Under the pieces are notes generated by a model. That model was not told the origin of the DNA and ran no database searches. It saw only the letters and a list, made by a program, of their open reading frames with translations. A stretch of 64,000 bases of DNA. Source: Pseudorhodobacter sp. (GTDB lineage Bacteria; Pseudomonadota; Alphaproteobacteria; Rhodobacterales; Rhodobacteraceae). Positions 135-41,752 of this stretch are shown here, piece by piece. The stretch spans positions 6,027-70,026 of the forward strand of contig JANNSG010000085.1 in the NCBI GenBank assembly GCA_031402355.1. Reading direction: 5' to 3'. Made by a program: the position numbers and the translations under genes. How positions within the stretch are numbered: the stretch's first letter is position 1; each line of letters starts with the position of its first letter.

Positions 135-1280
135 TCACGGCGCTTCCGTCACGTTCTTGCGGTAAATCCAGTCAAAGCGTGCGAGGGGCCGCGCGGGCGT
201 GACAATGGCCGCTGCCCGCATCACGGTCTGCAGGGCTATGCGGCGAGGGCCCGCAGCGTGGTAGATTTTGGCCGCGCTGTTGGCGGCCTCGACGATGCGG
301 GTGGTGCGATCTTTGCGTGCGGCCTGATAGGCAGCAAGCGCCTTGGCCTGATCAGGTTTGCGCGCCAAAGCGTCTGCCAGCACCCAAGCATCTTCAAGCG
401 CCATATTTGCACCCTGTGCCAGAAACGGCAGTGTCGGATGCGCCGCATCGCCCAGCAAGACCAGCCTGTCGCCATACCAGTCTCTGGCCACCGGATGCCG
501 GAACAGACCCCATAGGCCGACGTCCTGCACCTGCGCCAGCCAGGTCTGCACACGCGGCCCGAAGCCGGCGAAAGCCGCCCGCAGATGATCGGGATTGTCA
601 CTGTTTGACCAGCCCTCGGCAGCCCATGTCCCGCGTTCTTCAACGGCCACGATATTGCGCAAGATGCCGCCACGCAGCGGATAGCTGACCAGATGGCGGC
701 CGGGACCCATGAACACTTCGGCGACGGTGGCGCCGCCATCACCCGGCAGCATGGCGCGCCAAGCCACCTGGCCGGTGTAAAACGGCGCAGCGGGCCCGTT
801 CAACACGCCGCGAGCCTGTGATTTCACCCCGTCTGCGCCCACGATCAAGGCGGCATTCAGCACTTTGCCGTCGTGCAGGGCGACCCAACCCGGACCAACG
901 GATTTGACTTCGGTTGCAAAGCGCAGGGTCACGCCGGCTTGTTGCGCGCCATCGGCAAGTAGACCGGTCAGATCGGCCCGGTGCAGCAGGCGGTAATCCT
1001 GTCCGGCCAGATCCATGTTCAGCAAGGCTACGCCCGCACTGTTGCGCAAGACAATACCCCGGTTCGCCAGCCCCGCCGTATCCAGTGCCGCGCCAAGACC
1101 CAGCGCCCGCAGCACGACCGCACCATTCGGGCTGATCTGAATGCCGGCCCCGACGTCCTGCAATTGGTGCGCTTGTTCCAGCACGGTAACATCGGCGCCG
1201 TGCAAGGCCAAGGCGCGCGCCACTGCCAGCCCGGCGATGCCCGCCCCGATCACGACAACGCTTTGGCCCATCAGCGCCAT
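135..1280 (-). CDS. FAD-dependent monooxygenase (salicylate hydroxylase / UbiH-like)
   Basis: Track ORF 135..1373. N-terminal Rossmann motif VVVIGAGIAGL and C-terminal GDAAHP motif. The start was trimmed to the Met just before the GxGxxG (1280 or 1271), because the longer form overlaps dksA and its terminator. Confidence 0.8.
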   Translation of the reverse strand: MALMGQSVVVIGAGIAGLAVARALALHGADVTVLEQAHQLQDVGAGIQISPNGAVVLRALGLGAALDTAGLANRGIVLRNSAGVALLNMDLAGQDYRLLHRADLTGLLADGAQQAGVTLRFATEVKSVGPGWVALHDGKVLNAALIVGADGVKSQARGVLNGPAAPFYTGQVAWRAMLPGDGGATVAEVFMGPGRHLVSYPLRGGILRNIVAVEERGTWAAEGWSNSDNPDHLRAAFAGFGPRVQTWLAQVQDVGLWGLFRHPVARDWYGDRLVLLGDAAHPTLPFLAQGANMALEDAWVLADALARKPDQAKALAAYQAARKDRTTRIVEAANSAAKIYHAAGPRRIALQTVMRAAAIVTPARPLARFDWIYRKNVTEAP

Positions 1281-1289
1281 TGCACCCCC

Positions 1290-1318
1290 AAAAGCAAAAC
1301 GCCGGGGACGTCCCCGGC
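1290..1318 (-). terminator. Intrinsic terminator downstream of dksA
   Basis: Perfect 18-bp palindrome GCCGGGGACGTCCCCGGC (1301..1318), followed on the minus strand by GTTTTGCTTTT. Confidence 0.7.
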
Positions 1319-1338
1319 GTTGCCTGTTGCTTTGCGCA

Positions 1339-1812
1339 TCAGTCTTCGCGGTGAACCCGTTCGCGGCGTTCATGCTTTTCTTGCGCTTCCAGCGTCATCA
1401 CCGCAATCGGGCGGGCGTCCAGACGCTTGAGCGAGATCTGCTCGCCCGACACTTCGCAATAGCCAAACTCGCCGTTTTCAATGCGGCGCAATGCTGCGTC
1501 GATCTTGGACACCAGTTTGCGTTGCCTGTCGCGGGTGCGCAATTCAAGCGCACGGTCGGTTTCTTCGGACGCGCGGTCAGCGATATCAGGCACGTTGCGG
1601 CCCGAATCCTGCAGACCTTCGATGGTCTCAGCGCTTTGGCTCATCAATTCATTTTTCCAGACAATCAGCTTTCGGCGAAAATATTCCAACTGCCGATCAT
1701 TCATGAAGGGTTCATTTTCGGCGGGCCGGTAATCGTCGGGAAGAAACACTTCTACCTTCATAACACCACTCTCCAAATTGCCGGAATACTCCGACAGGGG
1801 GCCATCTGTCAT
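1339..1812 (-). CDS. dksA: RNA polymerase-binding transcription factor DksA (Zn-finger-less variant)
   Basis: Coiled-coil tip motif DIADRA (DxxDxA). C-terminal region GYCEVSGEQISLKRLDARPIAVMTLEAQ aligns with the DksA C4 region. GGAG SD precedes 1812, and an alternative start at 1761 also has GGAGAG. Confidence 0.9.
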   Translation of the reverse strand: MTDGPLSEYSGNLESGVMKVEVFLPDDYRPAENEPFMNDRQLEYFRRKLIVWKNELMSQSAETIEGLQDSGRNVPDIADRASEETDRALELRTRDRQRKLVSKIDAALRRIENGEFGYCEVSGEQISLKRLDARPIAVMTLEAQEKHERRERVHRED

Positions 1813-1933
1813 TGCATGCTCCTATTGAGGCGTCGTGTAGCGCAAGAATGTTCGATTGTCACTAGCGGTTGCGCCGAATTCGGCGGCCCGTTAGGCTTAC
1901 CTTATCAATTCCTTATAGAGGCTTGTCCTGCCG

Positions 1934-2773
1934 ATGAAATTTGCCTCGACCCCGGCCTATGTGGCGACCGATGATCTGATCATGGCAGTAAATGCCGCAG
2001 TCACGTTGGAGCGGCCTTTGCTGGTGAAAGGCGAGCCCGGGACCGGCAAGACCGAGCTTGCACGGCAAGTGGCAAAGGCACTGGCGATGCCGATCATCGA
2101 ATGGCATGTGAAATCGACAACCAAGGCGCAGCAAGGGCTTTACGATTACGATGCCGTCAGCCGGTTGCGCGACAGCCAATTGGGTGATGCAAGGGTCAAT
2201 GATGTGGCCAATTACATTCGCCGCGGCAAGCTTTGGCAGGCCTTTGCCGCCCCTGCCCGCGTCGTTTTGCTGATCGACGAGATAGACAAGGCCGATATCG
2301 AGTTTCCCAACGATCTTTTGCAGGAACTGGACCGGATGGAGTTCCATGTCTACGAGACCGGGCAGACGATTTCGGCGCGGCACCGGCCGGTGGTCATCAT
2401 CACCTCAAACAACGAAAAAGAATTGCCCGACGCGTTTTTGCGCCGTTGCTTTTTCCATTTCATCACCTTCCCGGATGCCGACACCCTGCGCCGGATCGTC
2501 GATGTGCATTTTCCGGGCATCAAGGCGGACCTTCTCTCGACCGCGTTGACCCAGTTCTTTGATCTGCGCGAAACGCCGGGCTTGAAGAAAAAGCCGTCAA
2601 CCTCGGAAATGCTGGATTGGTTGAAGCTGTTGCTGGCGGATGATCTGACAGCCGAGGATCTGCGACGCGACGGGGCAAAGTCGCTGCCCCGGCTACATGG
2701 TGCGCTGCTAAAGAACGAACAGGACGTGCATCTGTTTGAACGGCTGGCCTTCATGTCGCGCGGGCAACGCTGA
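1934..2773 (+). CDS. MoxR-like AAA+ ATPase (AAA_5 type)
   Basis: Walker A GEPGTGKT, Walker B LLIDEIDK and sensor region SNNEKELPDAFLRRC. 279 aa. Confidence 0.85.
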   Translation: MKFASTPAYVATDDLIMAVNAAVTLERPLLVKGEPGTGKTELARQVAKALAMPIIEWHVKSTTKAQQGLYDYDAVSRLRDSQLGDARVNDVANYIRRGKLWQAFAAPARVVLLIDEIDKADIEFPNDLLQELDRMEFHVYETGQTISARHRPVVIITSNNEKELPDAFLRRCFFHFITFPDADTLRRIVDVHFPGIKADLLSTALTQFFDLRETPGLKKKPSTSEMLDWLKLLLADDLTAEDLRRDGAKSLPRLHGALLKNEQDVHLFERLAFMSRGQR

Positions 2774-3024
2774 CCCGGATCGGCAGCCGATTCGCATGGT
2801 TCCGGGGCCGAATGATGATCACAGAGCCGGCAAAATCTTGTCATGCTTTGACATAATCCGTGACAAGCAAAAGAAGATGTCGTGTCAGGCCCTGATGGTG
2901 CCGCGATGGGTAGTCATGCCAAACCTTGGGCATTTTCAAAACATTGACAGAAAGAAGCCGCAGTCCCGACACTGGCCGCTGATGGATTGGCGCTAGGTCG
3001 ATTGCAACTTGAAAATGAGCCCGA

Positions 3025-3480
3025 ATGTCGGCACCGCTGTCCTTAACCGTTCGACCCGTCGCAGCTTCTGACGAGAGCCAATGGCGCGATTTGTGGCAGG
3101 CCTATCTTGCGTTTTATGAAACCGAACTGCCCGAGACGACCTATCGCGACACGTTTCGCAGGCTGATCGCGGGCGACGCAGGGATGTATGGCCTGCTGGC
3201 GGTATCAGACGGTGCAGCCCTGGGTTTGGTGCATTACCTCTACCATCAGAATTTCTGGAAACCCGCGCCGATCTGCTATTTGCAGGATTTGTTCACCACG
3301 CCCGCCGCGCGCGGCAAAGGGGTTGCACGCACGCTGATGCAAGCGGTATTTGCCGCCGCAGCCAAATCGGGCAGTCCTGATGTCTATTGGCTGACGGCCG
3401 AGACAAATTATGCCGGGCGGCTTTTGTATGACCAACTTGGCGCCAAGACCCCCTTCATCGTCTATGAACGGGCGGTCTAG
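3025..3480 (+). CDS. GNAT family N-acetyltransferase
   Basis: 151 aa with acetyl-CoA binding motif region TTPAARGKGVARTLM (Q/RxxGxG/A-like). Confidence 0.75.
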   Translation: MSAPLSLTVRPVAASDESQWRDLWQAYLAFYETELPETTYRDTFRRLIAGDAGMYGLLAVSDGAALGLVHYLYHQNFWKPAPICYLQDLFTTPAARGKGVARTLMQAVFAAAAKSGSPDVYWLTAETNYAGRLLYDQLGAKTPFIVYERAV

Positions 3481-4839
3481 ATGCGCAACGGTATCGCAGC
3501 CTTTGTGTTGTTGCTTGCGGCTTGCGCCCCCGCAGACCGCGCCGAGGTGACCAAAGCCTATCCTTTTGACGCCACCACACCGGTGGCCTTGCCGGCCATG
3601 AAGGCCTTTGCCCCACAACCCGGGATTGCACCGACCCGCAGCAACCGCGATATCGCCGCCGATTTCATGGATCTGGAATTCAGCCTTGAAAGCGGGCGCA
3701 CCTTGCCGTTTCTGACCCGGTTTGATGGCACCGTGACAGTCGCCCTGCGCGGCGATGTTCCTGCAACGGCATCGGCCGATCTGGGGCATCTGATGGCGCG
3801 ATTGCGCGCCGAGGCAGGCATCGACATCGCATCGGCGCAGGGACCGGGTGCGGCCATCGTCATCGAGTTTCTGCCCCGCGCCCGCATGCAGGCGGTGGTG
3901 CCGACAGCCGCCTGTTTTGTTGCCCCGCGCGTCGCAAGCTGGGCCGAATACCGCAAAAGCCGCAACAGCGACACACTGGATTGGGCAACCCTGACCCGCC
4001 GAGAGCATCTGGTGATCTTCATCCCCTCGGACACCAGCCCGCAAGAAGTGCGCGACTGCCTGCATGAGGAACTGGCACAGGCGCTCGGGCCGCTGAACGA
4101 TCTGTACCGGCTGCCGGATTCGGTGTTCAACGACGATAATTTTCAAGCCGTTCTGACCGGCTTTGACATGTTGATGCTGCGTTTGCACTATAGCCCTGAA
4201 TTGCAAAACGGCATGACGGCGCAGGACATTGCGGCGCGTCTGCCAGCGTTGTTGGCGCGGCTGAACCCGCAGGGCGAATTTGCTGGCAAAACGGGCAACC
4301 GTGCGAATTCGCAAAACTGGATTGACCTGATCGAAACCGCGTTGGGACCAAAGACATCGGATGGTGCGCGTCTGCGGGCGGCGGAAAGCGCGCTGGGGAT
4401 TGCCCGGCAACAAGGGTACGGCGACAACAGGCTGGCGTTCAGCTATTTCGCGGTCGGGCGGTTGAATCTGGGCCGGGACATTCCCCGCGCGGTCGCCTCG
4501 TTTTCGCAAGCGGCCCAGCTTTATCAGACCCTTCCCGACGGGCCGGTGCATTCGGCGCATGTCGATATGCAGATGGCGGCTTTTGCTTTGTCATCTGGCC
4601 AGCCAGAAGCGGCGATTGCGCTTGCCGATACGTCAATCCCGGTTGCCATGCGCGCGCAAAATGCCGCATTGCTGGCCACGCTGATGCTGTTGAAAGCACA
4701 GGCGCTTGATGAACTGGGGCGCGACGACGCAGCAAGTGCCGTTCGGCTCGACAGTCTGGGTTGGGCACGATATGGCTTTGGATCAGATCAGAATGTGCGC
4801 GACCGGATCAGGGATATTGCCGCGCTTTCATCACTTTAG
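3481..4839 (+). CDS. Lipoprotein with DUF2927-like N-terminal region and helical-repeat C-terminal region
   Basis: Signal peptide plus lipobox LLLAAC. Motif CLHEELAQALGPLND resembles the conserved core I recall for DUF2927 lipoproteins. The ATG directly abuts the GNAT stop codon. Confidence 0.6.
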   Translation: MRNGIAAFVLLLAACAPADRAEVTKAYPFDATTPVALPAMKAFAPQPGIAPTRSNRDIAADFMDLEFSLESGRTLPFLTRFDGTVTVALRGDVPATASADLGHLMARLRAEAGIDIASAQGPGAAIVIEFLPRARMQAVVPTAACFVAPRVASWAEYRKSRNSDTLDWATLTRREHLVIFIPSDTSPQEVRDCLHEELAQALGPLNDLYRLPDSVFNDDNFQAVLTGFDMLMLRLHYSPELQNGMTAQDIAARLPALLARLNPQGEFAGKTGNRANSQNWIDLIETALGPKTSDGARLRAAESALGIARQQGYGDNRLAFSYFAVGRLNLGRDIPRAVASFSQAAQLYQTLPDGPVHSAHVDMQMAAFALSSGQPEAAIALADTSIPVAMRAQNAALLATLMLLKAQALDELGRDDAASAVRLDSLGWARYGFGSDQNVRDRIRDIAALSSL

Positions 4840-16475: not shown

Positions 16476-17312
16476 ATGCGGCATACGCTTCCCATTGCGC
16501 CCCAATTTTATGTGACGGCACCCCAGTCCTGCCCCTATCTTGAGGGCCGAATGGAGCGCAAGTTGTTCACCGCATTGCAGGGCGAACATGCCCAGCGATT
16601 GAACGATACACTGTCGAAACAGGGGTTCCGGCGCAGCCAGAATGTGCTTTATCGCCCTTCATGTGCGGAATGTTCGGCCTGCATGTCAGCTCGGATCCGG
16701 GTGGCCGATTTTGAACCATCGCGGAACCAGCGAAAGGTGCTAAACCGGACCCAGAACCTGAAGCGGAACGCGACAAGCCCATGGGCTACAGAAGATCAGT
16801 TCAGCCTGTTTCGGCGCTATCTGGATGATCGCCACGCTGAAGGTGGCATGGCGGATATGGATATTTTCGAATTCGCGGCAATGATCGAGGAAACGCCGAT
16901 CCGGACCAGAGTGATCGAATATACCCGGCCTTCGCGGGCAGGTGAGCGGGGTCGGCCGTTGGCCGCAGTTTGCCTGACCGATGTTCTGGATGACGGGCTG
17001 AGCATGGTCTATTCGTTCTATGACACCGAACTTTCGAACTTCAGCATGGGGACGTACATCATTCTCGATCACATCGCGATCGCGCGTGAGGCGGGGCTGC
17101 CTTATGTCTATCTTGGGTATTGGGTACCCGGCAGCAAGAAGATGGGATACAAGGCCGGGTTCTCGGCGTTGGAGATCTACAAAGGCGGGCGCTGGCAGGA
17201 TCTGGGTGCCGTGGCCGATCATTCCGCTGAACTGCATCCTTTGTCGGTCGATCCGATTGCCGAGCAAGTGGCGCGGATCAGCTTGCCCGACAGCCGCGCG
17301 CCCAGGGAATGA
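16476..17312 (+). CDS. bpt: Arginyl/leucyl-tRNA--protein transferase (ATE/Bpt family, N-end rule)
   Basis: N-terminal CPYLEGR motif, [12 protein letters not shown] and C-terminal YVYLGYW, all typical of bacterial Bpt. Confidence 0.85.
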
Positions 17313-17713: not shown

Positions 17714-17831
17714 CCCGTGTGTTACGATTTATAAAATATTGATATTGCTATATATTATAAAATTTGTTCATAAAGTTTTAATACTTTAACACGTTTCTGT
17801 TCAGCGCAAGATCCTGACGACAGACTGGTTA

Positions 17832-17862: not shown

Positions 17863-19746
17863 CTAGCCTATCACTGCGCTATCATCGCGGCGAATGGCTA
17901 AGACAGAAGACCGTGGCAGGCCTGCGCCGTCGGGGAAAGTGCCACCAGGATGCTGGATGCCCACAAAAATCGTACGTTTGTCTGACGAGAAGGTCATGCC
18001 GGTCACTTCGCTACCTTTTGGCCCGGTGAGAAACCGTTCGATCTGCCCGGTAACGGGATCGCCAACCAACATCTGGTTGTTGCCTTGTCCCAGAAAGTCA
18101 CCTTCATTGCTGTCTTCACCGTCGGTCTGAATCCACAGCATACCGTTGCTGTCAAACGTCATGCCGTCGGGCGAATTGAACATATTTCCGGAATTGATGT
18201 TGGACGACCCGGCATAGGCATCTTTCAAGACATCCGGGTTGCCGGCCATTACATAGAGATCCCAAGTGAAGGCAGGATCGGCGTGATCTTCGTTTGCCGG
18301 ATACCAACGCACGATCTGACCGAATTCATTTTCGGCTCGTGGATTTGGGCCGCCGACGGGCGTCGCATCGCCACCTGCGTTTGGTTTGACCCCGCGATTG
18401 GAATTGTTGGTCAGGCAGCAATACGCCTCTATCGCGACCGGATTTACGGCAACCCATTCGGGGCGGTCCATGGTGGTAGCGCCGACCTTCGATCCAGCCA
18501 GACGAGTGTGGATCAAAATTTCAGCCTGCGTCATGCCAGTTGCCTCTGGGGTCAGCGGCAGCCAAGCACCTGTCATGTCATCGCTGAATTTAGCAACGTA
18601 AAGCTGCCCTTTATCTAGCAATGTCGAGGTGTCACCCCCCGGAGTATAGGCATCTGCAGAGACGTATTTATAAAGGAACTCACCCCGTTCATCATCACCG
18701 AGGTAGACCACGACCTTGCCATCGCGCGCCACAACAAGGGCCGCATTTTCGTGCTTGAAACGGCCCAGAGCGGTGCGCTTAACCGGGGTAGACGCCGCGT
18801 CTGCCGGATTGATTTCAACGATGAATCCAAACCGGTTCGGCTCATTCGGAGTTTTGGCAAGATCAAACCGGGCATCGAATTTTTCGTAGGCATAGCGACC
18901 TTCGACCCCAACGCCGTAGCGCGCAAGCTGAGGCGAAACAACCAGACCAGCATCGGTGGAGCCGAAGTAAGAGTTGAAGTTTTCTTCGCAGGTAAGGTAG
19001 GTGCCCCAGGGTGTACGCCCTGCCCCACAATTGTTCATCGTCCCCAGAACCATTGTGCCAGTCGGATCGGCTTCGGTTTTCAGCAGGTCATGCCCCGCTG
19101 CCGGGCCGGAAAAGGTCATCGGGGTGAGGTGAGTTATGCGGCGATTATACGGGCTATCGATCACAATTTCCCAGCCGTCTGCGCCTTCCGCAATTTCCAT
19201 GACAGACACGCCTTGGGCGTTTTGCAGCATCACGACATCATCTGCCGTGGCAGGCATATTGTCTGTGTTCTTCGGAAGATTCACGTCAAGATTGGCATAT
19301 TCGTGGTTGACGGCAATGACTTCGCGTCCGCCTATATTGAACAACTCCATGCCGTCAGTATTTTCGCCGAAGGCCCGCAACTGACCTGCCGCGGTCATGC
19401 CGGTATCGACGTTGAAGGCTTCAGAATCCGAGAACATCGGCTGGCCCCATTTGGCGACAACCTTTGCGGTATAGCCTTCGGGCACATGAACTGCGAAATC
19501 GGTTGCGATCGGAATTGGCTTGAAAGCAAAGCGGGTGGCGGAGGCTTGCGCAAGGGCCGACGTGGCGGACAGCAAGCCGGTTCCCATTGCTGCAGCACCA
19601 GACCCAAATGCAAGGACCGCACCCAGAAAGCCGCGACGCGACAGGGCAGAAGTGACAATGCGGTCAAAGTCCTGTTCTGCCGGACGCGGGTCGCGCAATT
19701 CATCAAACGCGTCAAAGGACAGGGATTTGGTATCGAAGTCTTTCAT
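17863..19746 (-). CDS. phoX: PhoX family alkaline phosphatase (Tat-exported)
   Basis: Twin-arginine signal SRRGFLGAVLAFGSGAAAMG and a long beta-propeller-like DUF839/PhoX body. The start at 19746 has a GGAG SD, and the track ORF extends to 19767. Confidence 0.85.
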   Translation of the reverse strand: MKDFDTKSLSFDAFDELRDPRPAEQDFDRIVTSALSRRGFLGAVLAFGSGAAAMGTGLLSATSALAQASATRFAFKPIPIATDFAVHVPEGYTAKVVAKWGQPMFSDSEAFNVDTGMTAAGQLRAFGENTDGMELFNIGGREVIAVNHEYANLDVNLPKNTDNMPATADDVVMLQNAQGVSVMEIAEGADGWEIVIDSPYNRRITHLTPMTFSGPAAGHDLLKTEADPTGTMVLGTMNNCGAGRTPWGTYLTCEENFNSYFGSTDAGLVVSPQLARYGVGVEGRYAYEKFDARFDLAKTPNEPNRFGFIVEINPADAASTPVKRTALGRFKHENAALVVARDGKVVVYLGDDERGEFLYKYVSADAYTPGGDTSTLLDKGQLYVAKFSDDMTGAWLPLTPEATGMTQAEILIHTRLAGSKVGATTMDRPEWVAVNPVAIEAYCCLTNNSNRGVKPNAGGDATPVGGPNPRAENEFGQIVRWYPANEDHADPAFTWDLYVMAGNPDVLKDAYAGSSNINSGNMFNSPDGMTFDSNGMLWIQTDGEDSNEGDFLGQGNNQMLVGDPVTGQIERFLTGPKGSEVTGMTFSSDKRTIFVGIQHPGGTFPDGAGLPRSSVLAIRRDDSAVIG

Positions 19747-20009
19747 TGGTTTGCTCCATGGCTGCAAGGCTGGCTTGGCGGATATTGATGCCCGAAAGCG
19801 TTGACGGTAGTTGGGCCGGGTAACGGGTGGACGACAGGGTGATAACGGTTTTGCAAGGTCCTGCCCGGATGAGCGGATATCTGCGAGTCGGCGGGTGGCG
19901 ACTGGTCATTATCAAGCTAGATTTTTTGAAAGTTGCGCCAACCGGCTGCGCAAAGCAAGAAACGATCTATTTTTTCGATTTTCTCGACAGATAATTTATA
20001 TTTTTGCCG

Positions 20010-35862: not shown

Positions 35863-36312
35863 ATGAGCGATACCGATCTGATCAAACTCTATTCCGGCCA
35901 GATACTCGCCCTGGCGGCAAATATCCCGCATTTGGGGCGACTTGCCGCACCGGCGGCCAGTTCGAAGCGCCGCTCGCCGCTGTGTGGGTCGGTGGTGACG
36001 GTCGATATTGTGGTGCGGGACGGGCGGATTGCTGAATTTGCGCAAGATGTGAAGGCCTGCGCGCTAGGACAGGCGGCTGCAGCGATTGTCGGGGGCGGCG
36101 TGATCGGGCGCAACCGGGCCGAGATAGAGCAGGCACGCGATGCTGTGGCGGCGATGCTGAAATCGGGTGGCCCCACGCCAGCGGCACCCTTCGGCGGCTT
36201 TGAGGTTTTGCTGCCTGCCCGCGAATACAAGAACCGGCATGCCTCGATTTTGCTGGCTATTGAAGCAACAGCCGACGCAATGGCGCAAGCAGAACGGCCC
36301 GACCAGCCCTAA
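35863..36312 (+). CDS. IscU/NifU N-terminal-like scaffold homologue (third Cys replaced)
   Basis: SPLCGS and KACALGQAA align to IscU Cys37 and Cys63. NRHASILLAIEA aligns to HCSILAEDA with Ala in place of Cys106. AGGAAAG SD. Confidence 0.7.
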   Translation: MSDTDLIKLYSGQILALAANIPHLGRLAAPAASSKRRSPLCGSVVTVDIVVRDGRIAEFAQDVKACALGQAAAAIVGGGVIGRNRAEIEQARDAVAAMLKSGGPTPAAPFGGFEVLLPAREYKNRHASILLAIEATADAMAQAERPDQP

Positions 36313-36347
36313 AAAAACCGCCGCACGCCCGTTGGGGGCGGCGGCGG
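36311..36347 (-). terminator. Intrinsic terminator for the minus-strand small ORF transcript
   Basis: On the minus strand, CCGCCGC...GCGGCGG stem followed by TTTTTTT (plus-strand A7 at 36311..36317). Confidence 0.7.
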
Positions 36348-36452
36348 CAAGTCGCGTATCACAAGGCACGGGCACGCGAAGCGGGGCAGCTTCGCAGAGG
36401 ACATTCTGGGGAAAATGCCGCCCATGCCGGACCGCAGGCAGAACAGTGAACC

Positions 36453-36575
36453 CTACGCAGAGCCTGACAAATAAAGGCCCGCAACAAGCAGCGAAAACAA
36501 CGACAGCACACCGATGGAATCTTCGATCACCGTTTCACGAGACCGGATCAGGATATCTTTGATTTCTGTCAACAT
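36453..36575 (-). CDS. Unlisted small ORF, a 40-aa hydrophobic peptide (MLTEIKDILIRSRETVIEDSIGVLSLFSLLVAGLYLSGSA)
   Basis: Hand-translated. GAGGAG SD 6 nt upstream of the ATG, a C-terminal TM helix and a dedicated terminator. An SOS-box-bearing AT-rich tract lies upstream. Below the size cutoff of the ORF track. Confidence 0.55.
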   Translation of the reverse strand: MLTEIKDILIRSRETVIEDSIGVLSLFSLLVAGLYLSGSA

Positions 36576-36631
36576 GGTCTGCTCCTCTGCCTTGTTGCTG
36601 TATTGTTCTCATAAAATTAACCATTTGAAAA

Positions 36632-36656
36632 GAACTTTATAAGAACATTTGAGAAC
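36632..36656 (-). promoter_or_regulatory. Candidate LexA (SOS) box, GTTC-N7-GTTC with a third GTTC at N6
   Basis: Plus strand reads GAACtttataaGAACatttgaGAAC. The first pair (36632..36646) is a perfect match to the alphaproteobacterial direct-repeat SOS box. It lies 57 to 81 nt upstream of the small ORF ATG. Confidence 0.55.
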
Positions 36657-36706
36657 AAAAGTGGTTTTTCTGCTGGATTGACCCACCAAGCGTCGACAAG
36701 ACGCTG

Positions 36707-40950
<4,244 letters not shown>

Positions 40951-40987: not shown

Positions 40988-41701
40988 TCAGGCAGAGGCA
41001 GCAAATCTGCGTTGTGCTTCGACCGGGACAGGTTCGCGCAGCACATAGCCGCGACCCCAGACCGTTTCGATGTAATTGGTACCACCGGTGGCTTCCGCCA
41101 ATTTCTTGCGCAGTTTGCAGATGAAGACGTCGATGATCTTCAGTTCCGGTTCATCCATGCCGCCATAAAGATGATTGAGGAACATCTCTTTGGTCAGCGT
41201 GGTGCCCTTGCGCAAGGACAGCAGTTCGAACATCTGGTATTCCTTGCCGGTCAGATGCACCGTCTTGCCTTCGACATCAACGGTCTTGGCATCCAGATTG
41301 ACATTCACCGTACCGGTCTTGATCACCGATTGCGCATGGCCTTTGGAGCGGCGGATAATGGCGTGAATGCGGGCAACCAGTTCTTCGCGGTGGAAGGGTT
41401 TGGTCATGTAGTCATCCGCACCAAAACCGAAACCCTTGAGTTTATTATCGGTATCATCAGATCCTGACAGGATCAGAATAGGGGTATCGACCTTGGCCAG
41501 CCGCAACTGGCGCAAGACTTCATGCCCGCTCATGTCCGGCAGATTGAGATCGAGCAGGATCAGGTCGTAATCGTAGAGCTTGGCCAGATCGACGCCGTCT
41601 TCGCCAAGGTCTGTGCAATAGACATTCAAATTCGCATGGGTCAGCATCAATTCGATGCTGCGCGATGTCGTCGGATCGTCTTCAACAAGTAAAATACGCA
41701 T
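40988..41701 (-). CDS. ctrA: Cell-cycle response regulator CtrA
   Basis: [20 protein letters not shown]...[13 protein letters not shown] receiver domain plus an OmpR-type wHTH. Matches the CtrA sequences I recall. The track ORF is extended to 41734. Confidence 0.9.
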
Positions 41702-41752
41702 GGGGGTCAATCTCCGCTTCGGGCTGCTGTTCATTAACTATAGTGGGGAGCA

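Follow-up and report, generated by a model that had tools for sequence, protein, structure and literature searches.

The window analysed here, a 64,000-nucleotide stretch of contig JANNSG010000085.1 of a Pseudorhodobacter sp. genome, carries a small gene for a 40-residue peptide in the gap behind recG. Positions follow the numbering of this 64-kb window, and all elements of the peptide unit lie on its minus strand. The stop codon of recG (36707) and the end of a convergent NifU_N-like gene (36312) leave 394 bp between them. The original prediction for this gap had listed an AT-rich tract, GTTC repeats, a Shine-Dalgarno sequence, a short open reading frame (ORF), a hairpin, a terminator and a CtrA-type 8-mer, and each of these was recovered on the minus strand exactly where it had been placed. 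The view of the gap as a self-contained small transcription unit was likewise supported: its operator and promoter region are its own, its Shine-Dalgarno sequence is conserved, its 40-codon ORF is under purifying selection, and an intrinsic terminator closes it. Two elements went beyond that prediction, namely an inverted second box at 36594..36608 and a strong conservation of the 3′ untranslated region (3′UTR). The 60-nt tract at 36601..36660 has a GC content of 21.7% (window mean, 59.3%), and 0.056% of the 60-mers in the window are equally AT-rich.

The gene is real and under purifying selection, and its ORF is almost certainly translated. The ORF was exactly 40 codons long in all 17 distinct orthologous DNAs, which derived from metagenomes, metagenome-assembled genomes (MAGs) and Pseudorhodobacter aquimaris. 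Among close relatives, the variable sites were distributed over codon positions 1/2/3 as 17/6/36. Comparisons of the window with its relatives gave proportions of nonsynonymous differences (pN) of 0.05–0.35 and of synonymous differences (pS) of 0.6–0.74 (two near-identical copies excluded), with a pN/pS of ca. 0.1–0.26. A GGAG-type Shine-Dalgarno sequence was found at the same position in relatives, with a weaker GAGG in locus L022. A leader hairpin (GGCAAC/GUUGCC, or GGAAC/GUUCC in other species) folds at −2 to −11 kcal/mol, is weak everywhere and is missing in several species; on predicted folding, sequestration of the Shine-Dalgarno sequence by this hairpin is at most suggestive, and in some species only. 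A second small ORF within the 3′UTR (38 aa, 36309..36425) was rejected, as its ATG was not conserved.

A word-indexed search with the peptide returned 18 clusters of 83%–93% identity, all containing the 40-aa core and four of them carrying a few extra N-terminal residues. An exhaustive profile search yielded 105 representatives at the 50%-identity level, mostly of 38–40 aa. A second profile search yielded 309 clusters, in which every name given by the source was “hypothetical protein”, the annotation that other assemblies also attach to this ORF. The genera named among the 309 clusters included Frigidibacter, Loktanella, Yoonia, Rhodovulum, Sulfitobacter, Roseovarius, Roseobacter, Actibacterium, Pukyongiella, Thalassobium, Sediminimonas and Pseudorhodobacter, the last of which was closest to the window. 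The family thus spans Rhodobacterales, with named matches from genera of this order only. Sequence searches of Pfam, NCBIfam, PADLOC and PDB with the peptide and the family profile gave no credible relative, and no description of the family was found in the libraries or literature searched. A superficial T-x-I-E-[YD] likeness to Flp/Fap type IVb pilins was also considered and rejected: none of 72 family members matched Flp_Fap at E ≤ 1, and the peptide has RS in place of the glycine of the processing site G/XXXXEY.

Upstream of the ORF, the minus strand reads GTTC-N6-GTTC-N7-GTTC at 36632..36656. The direct repeat GTTC-N7-GTTC was first defined as a LexA motif in Rhodobacter and rhizobia. It is the published alphaproteobacterial LexA motif (PMC3323433, PMC9578287, PMC4211646). 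As a lone motif it was not enriched in the window (2 occurrences versus 1.66 expected), and the case for an operator therefore has to be made by comparison; the other occurrence (16713..16727) lies on the other strand inside a bpt-like coding sequence and was taken as chance. Exactly one copy of this box (box 1) was found at the orthologous site in each of 23 peptide loci, and the remaining loci were alike. The composite GTTC-N7-GTTC-N23-GAAC-N7-SAAC, which joins box 1 to the inverted box 2, occurred once in the window and in none of 100 shuffles. It also occurred once each, with identical spacing, in 28 of 28 peptide loci from at least five genera, including Sulfitobacter, Roseovarius and Frigidibacter, and in 0 of 5 recA loci. 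A check suggested along with the original prediction, on the co-occurrence of the ORF, the box and the position beside recG, found the three together in all 28 loci.

In an alignment of 14 loci, the ca. 50 nt after the recG stop codon diverge freely and are followed by an almost invariant block, TTTGTTCaCAAATGTTCTTATAAAGTTCTTTAC. The second box, TGAGAACAAnnnnG(C/G)AACA, sits 16 nt beyond this block in inverted orientation and is a perfect GAAC-N7-GAAC in L017, L023 and L033. Among 11 Pseudorhodobacter sequences, the mean pairwise identity was 0.85 in the promoter block, 0.42 in the 50 nt upstream of it and 0.56 at third codon positions. Family members with over-called N-termini translate the upstream DNA as MF(L/T)K..KFFT...ENK, and the block therefore extends across the family. 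The accessory GTTC varies, being ATTC in P. aquimaris (L023), missing in P. turbinis (L033) and part of four repeats in Frigidibacter (L030). Judged from this phylogenetic footprint, the GTTC repeats are an operator of the alphaproteobacterial LexA type.

The recA operator of Rhodobacter sphaeroides contains two GTTC-N7-type SOS boxes. For a comparison closer to the window, recA loci of P. ferrugineus, P. antarcticus and one Pseudorhodobacter MAG were retrieved with a RecA query (best match, 95% identical). Two of the three recA promoters read TTGTT..AAATGTTCTTGTTT, then TG(T/A)G(A/G)GAACAA-N5-GAACAAA; the third has its upstream GTTC shifted by 3 nt and the variant GAAA as its second half-site. 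When the promoters were aligned on the downstream box, 23 nt separated GTTC from GAAC-N7-GAAC in the peptide promoter and in two of the three recA promoters. The extended half-site TTGTTC/GAACAA is common to both, and the extended form of box 2, TG.G.GAACAA-N5-G.AACAA, is shared with the Pseudorhodobacter recA boxes. The peptide promoter differs from that of recA in an extra 11-bp GTTC unit, which gives the full upstream GTTC-N7-GTTC box, in a further accessory half-site in most species and in a much shorter leader. This shared architecture is the strongest evidence for LexA in the analysis. From it we infer that LexA binds the operator and that the gene is induced by DNA damage; LexA control of the peptide gene is well supported and highly likely. 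The SOS-type box named in the original prediction is thereby upheld, both by its footprint across loci and by its match to recA of the same genus. The recA leaders of three Pseudorhodobacter species (L024, L025 and L027) also contain, at −60..−10 from the ATG, a near-identical stretch GTGATTGCCGCGCGTCTGCGGCTGTGAAATAA with an inverted repeat, which could form a conserved structure in the leader, 3′ of the LexA box.

If another regulator acted on the GTTC repeats, for example a direct-repeat response regulator, the gene would stand outside the DNA-damage response. The three to four GTTC repeats at 10–11 bp spacing do resemble an OmpR/PhoB-type layout, an OmpR-family gene (ctrA) is located two genes upstream, and the absence of enrichment of the lone motif in the window also fits this explanation. 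However, the motif is exactly the published one for alphaproteobacterial LexA, the extended half-sites and the 23-nt box spacing recur in the recA promoter of the same genus, and the accessory repeats vary in number whereas the two canonical N7 boxes are invariant. Because the operator matches that of recA, a regulator other than LexA is unlikely, and we consider a place for the gene outside the damage response very improbable. The original prediction had also raised cell-cycle input through the CtrA-type 8-mer, an idea that was rejected. Of the CtrA regulon site TTAA-N7-TTAA(C), only a half-site is present in the promoter, and it is not conserved: L001 and L003 have lost it, L009 has it at a shifted position, and L021, L022 and L029–L031 lack it, although the rest of the unit is retained in all these loci. 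The nearby ctrA-like gene was taken as neighbourhood only.

Table 1. Features of the peptide unit and its upstream neighbours in the 64-kb window.
Feature	Position	Strand	Remarks
Whole transcription unit	36311..36656	−	Operator/promoter region, leader, 40-codon ORF, structured 3′UTR and terminator; block kept 3′ of recG in 28/28 loci
Accessory upstream GTTC half-site	36653..36656	−	N6 from the next GTTC; in most relatives
LexA-type box 1, GTTCTTATAAAGTTC	36632..36646	−	Perfect direct repeat GTTC-N7-GTTC
Putative −35, TTTTCA	36626..36631	−	TTTACA (within CTTTACA) in most relatives; inferred; position matches CTTGTT of recA promoters
CtrA-type 8-mer, TTAACCAT	36617..36624	−	Half-site only
LexA-type box 2 (inverted), GAACAATACAGCAAC	36594..36608	−	GAAC-N7-SAAC; GAAC-N7-CAAC in the window
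Putative −10, AACAAT	36602..36607	−	Inside box 2; 18 nt after the putative −35
Shine-Dalgarno, GAGGAG	36582..36587	−	6 nt ahead of the ATG at 36575
40-codon ORF, MLTEIKDILIRSRETVIEDSIGVLSLFSLLVAGLYLSGSA	36453..36575	−	Translation; orthologue comparison
3′UTR element 1	36403..36444	−	Helix GUUCUG (36444-36439)/CAGAAU (36408-36403) around near-invariant CCUGCG and UUCCCC
3′UTR element 2	36376..36395	−	Hairpin GCGAAGC/GCUUCGC; two stem pairs with compensatory changes
Intrinsic terminator	36311..36347	−	Interrupted GC-rich stem and T7; folds as predicted
recG	36707..38794	−	Directly upstream of the peptide gene
ligA	38791..40947	−	Within the ctrA-ligA-recG-peptide block
CtrA-like OmpR-family response regulator	40988..41734	−	Directly upstream of ligA and recG; two genes upstream of the peptide

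For the peptide itself, AlphaFold2 with the family alignment predicted one continuous helix over residues 2–37 (mean predicted local distance difference test score, 93). Residues 1–20 are polar and hold all three K/R residues, and residues 21–40 are hydrophobic and uncharged with a mean Kyte-Doolittle value of 1.8. The product is very probably a membrane peptide, for which the likeliest predicted topology is a single-pass N-in/C-out orientation with few (ca. 3–6) periplasmic residues. In a set of 72 diverse members, M1 and D19 do not vary, and R11, G22, L26, L30 and L34 are at least 90% conserved. Conservation clusters on one helical face, and the observed value was reached by 1 of 5000 permutations. 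This conserved stripe would extend from the cytoplasmic half across the membrane, a pattern that suggests contact with one specific protein more than a generic pore.

The best explanation for the locus, and one that we regard as reasonably probable, is an SOS-inducible 40-residue peptide that passes the inner membrane once. In undamaged cells, LexA dimers would occupy both operators, with GTTC-N7-GTTC lying over the likely −35 and the inverted GAAC-N7-(G/C)AAC covering the likely −10 and the start site, and the two together would close the promoter. Upon DNA damage, RecA-stimulated self-cleavage of LexA would free the promoter. The resulting RNA of ca. 290 nt would carry the 40-codon ORF behind a short leader and a strong Shine-Dalgarno sequence, followed by a structured 3′UTR of ca. 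140 nt and the intrinsic terminator. The peptide would then insert N-in/C-out as one long helix, and its conserved face (R11, T15, D19, G22, L26, L30, G33 and L34) would bind a membrane partner. By analogy with SidA, the likeliest partner would be the late divisome (FtsW/FtsI/FtsN), and division would be delayed during DNA repair. We propose a role specifically as a division inhibitor tentatively, as a possibility suggested by that analogy.

SidA is a 29-aa LexA-controlled division inhibitor in the inner membrane of Caulobacter crescentus that acts via FtsW/FtsI/FtsN (PMC4211646, PMC12700426). Both are alphaproteobacterial, very small membrane peptides with a single helix (predicted here) and a GTTC-N7-GTTC LexA motif in the promoter, and each is encoded by one chromosomal gene copy that lacks an antitoxin (PMC4211646, PMC9578287, PMC12700426). 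In contrast to SidA, the present peptide has 40 residues and a conserved polar N-terminal half (R11, T15, D19), and its gene is fixed beside recG and followed by a conserved structured 3′UTR. Moreover, approximately 97% of the SOS promoters in Caulobacter have a single box (bioRxiv 10.1101/2025.01.26.634973), whereas the peptide promoter has two inverted operators. The likeness is drawn from size, membrane helix and operator type, and all named matches in the profile searches were from Rhodobacterales. The Gram-positive proteins YneA, SosA, DivS and ChiZ are likewise SOS-induced, single-pass membrane proteins that delay division, roles that are proposed for the present peptide. However, at ca. 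70–250 aa they are larger, they contain extracytoplasmic domains, and their sequences are not similar to that of the peptide, which would have only ca. 3–6 residues beyond the membrane.

The original prediction had instead looked to enterobacteria and compared the peptide with TisB and DinQ. A type I toxin of this kind would cause depolarisation of the inner membrane and favour dormancy or persistence, and an antisense or antitoxin RNA would restrain it. As in TisB/IstR-1 and DinQ/AgrB of Escherichia coli, a small hydrophobic peptide, predicted here to form a single inner-membrane helix, is encoded behind a LexA-type operator and putatively repressed by LexA. A convergent antisense transcript could target or overlap the long, conserved and structured 3′UTR, and read-through from the convergent NifU_N-like gene is possible because the terminator is not a bidirectional one. 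The E. coli operators, however, are CTG-N10-CAG palindromes, whereas the present one is a direct repeat, and neither a cognate antitoxin RNA gene nor a long structured inert leader was found at the locus. The spacer between the recG stop codon and the operator is unconserved (42% identity), which makes a divergent IstR/AgrB-like RNA gene unlikely, and no promoter-like site was detected on either strand of the locus in the window. Searching Rfam over the locus gave no credible match; the only hit, rdlD on the terminator (18.9 bits against a 50-bit threshold, E = 0.81), was taken as chance. The leader of tisB is long and processed, whereas only ca. 18 nt separate box 2 from the ATG here. The transmembrane segment has no charged or polar residues that could line a pore, and the conserved polar N-terminal motif and single conserved face point to a specific partner. 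Finally, the peptide gene is a single-copy, syntenic core gene throughout the order, unlike most toxin-antitoxin loci. A type I toxin is thus an unlikely identity for the peptide, and SidA is a closer analogue than TisB or DinQ. The idea of a LexA-controlled small membrane peptide survives from the original prediction, but the enterobacterial parallel does not, and SidA, the alphaproteobacterial one, had been overlooked.

The 3′UTR was conserved to an unexpected degree; the SOS membrane-peptide model does not account for this conservation. The ca. 140 nt from the stop codon to the terminator are conserved above synonymous sites (69% identity versus 56% at third codon positions). RNAalifold supports three elements in this region, namely the GUUCUG/CAGAAU helix, the hairpin and the terminator, the last with compensatory changes in four stem pairs (11 sequences). 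A simple terminator scan had missed 36311..36347 because its stem is interrupted. Across the 11 sequences, the unpaired blocks CUGCCUGCG, UUCCCCAGAAUG and UGAUACGCGACUU show no or almost no differences, and CUGCCUGCG, the core of element 1, persists in distant relatives. The loop of element 2 reads UGCCCC in eight Pseudorhodobacter sequences out of 11, the remaining three having UGCCCU. A covariance model of the Pseudorhodobacter element found it in L021, L023, L029, L030 and L031 (E 3e-7 to 3e-13), with matches covering Sulfitobacter, Roseovarius, Frigidibacter and other distant loci, and found no second 3′UTR element in the window. Just past the stop codon, the window reads GTTC-N7-GGTC (36430..36444, minus strand), and four relatives have a perfect third GTTC-N7-GTTC there, GTTCTGCCTGCGTTC (L002, 5151-5165; L004, 4406-4420; L013, 5162-5176; L014, 2403-2417). 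In distant relatives the invariant core of this repeat is CTGCCTGCG and not the GTTC ends; the repeat is therefore possibly a feature of the RNA and not a site for LexA.

Such conservation could indicate a dual-function SOS RNA, in which the LexA-controlled transcript delivers both a membrane peptide and a base-pairing or protein-sponging regulatory RNA. In one form of this explanation the RNA would be the main product and the peptide a secondary one: the 3′UTR would act as, or be processed into, a base-pairing small RNA whose unpaired C-rich motifs, UUCCCC and UGCCCC, would be the seeds that pair with ribosome-binding sites. The near-invariance of the unpaired blocks in a region more conserved than third codon positions, the three helices backed by conservation or compensatory changes, and the reach of the covariance model into distant genera all agree with this explanation. 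Nevertheless, the ORF is under protein-level purifying selection across the order, and the peptide is therefore not incidental. The generic terminator contributes part of the covariance-model score, the window has no second copy, and the element belongs to no Rfam family. We consider a dual-function RNA improbable. If it exists, such an RNA would link DNA damage with post-transcriptional regulation in Rhodobacterales; to our knowledge, no SOS-controlled small RNA of this kind has been described in alphaproteobacteria.

Returning to the SOS-inducible membrane peptide, several points weigh against it in addition to the conservation of the 3′UTR. Consensus scans of the window and of two relatives flagged no sigma-70 promoter ahead of the ORF; the −35 and −10 hexamers were therefore placed by alignment with recA, and the overlap of operator and promoter follows from the same alignment. 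The SOS comparison drew on one bona fide SOS promoter, that of recA, in three species. One half-site of box 2, CAAC, departs from the consensus in the window, and the argument for a division inhibitor is one from analogy.

The genomic setting of the peptide gene is stable. The order ctrA-like response regulator, ligA, recG and peptide gene was identical in all Pseudorhodobacter-type loci long enough to show it; the product of 40988..41734 was presumed to be CtrA from recognition of its N-terminus. Adjacency of recG and the peptide gene also occurs in Sulfitobacter, Roseovarius, Frigidibacter and a 1.58-Mb P. turbinis replicon. The peptide gene lies 3′ of recG in every locus examined, and the genes beyond it vary. 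On comparison of these loci, it behaves as a single-copy, vertically inherited core gene. No plasmid-borne copies were found, save one on the P. turbinis replicon, which also carries recG. This replicon (L033, NZ_CP039965.1) is labelled a plasmid and typed as mobilisable in PLSDB; with core genes such as recG and a ligA-like gene, it is more likely a chromid or second chromosome than a plasmid.

Further observations concern individual genomes and the window at large. At 932..3038 and 3038..4001 of the Frigidibacter mobilis locus (L030, CP012661.1), recG is called as two overlapping ORFs (230 and 491 aa), which points to a frameshift or an error of sequencing, and lies ca. 960 bp away from the peptide gene. 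Four GTTC repeats stand in the promoter of the latter, and its 3′UTR extends over ca. 400 nt. In the model roseobacter Dinoroseobacter shibae (NC_009952.1), a 400-bp gap with no annotated gene lies at ca. 1573042..1573442 between recG (Dshi_1510) and the convergent Dshi_1511 (PMC6473078 supplement), a layout that would be expected if the peptide gene were present but unannotated. The most AT-rich tract of the window is located elsewhere, at 17720..17790, where the GC content falls to 11.7% in 60 nt and TTAA and TATA runs occur several times. It is flanked by the 3′ ends of two convergent ORFs, 17863..19767 (minus strand) and the bpt-like 16476..17312 (plus strand).

SOS-induced small membrane effectors are a known kind, but the Rhodobacterales family described here has no detectable similarity to known members. 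In this order, LexA has been tied to CtrA signalling and to the production of gene transfer agents (PMC6473078). The peptide is the best candidate so far for a damage-induced small membrane effector of Rhodobacterales and is possibly a cell-division brake. Its gene has been annotated as “hypothetical protein” only, or not at all, which marks a gap in annotation. The conserved double inverted operator of LexA type may in addition serve as a system for studying how alphaproteobacterial LexA reads direct repeats. The family offers a concrete, order-wide and directly testable candidate for a missing SOS effector of a large and ecologically important order.

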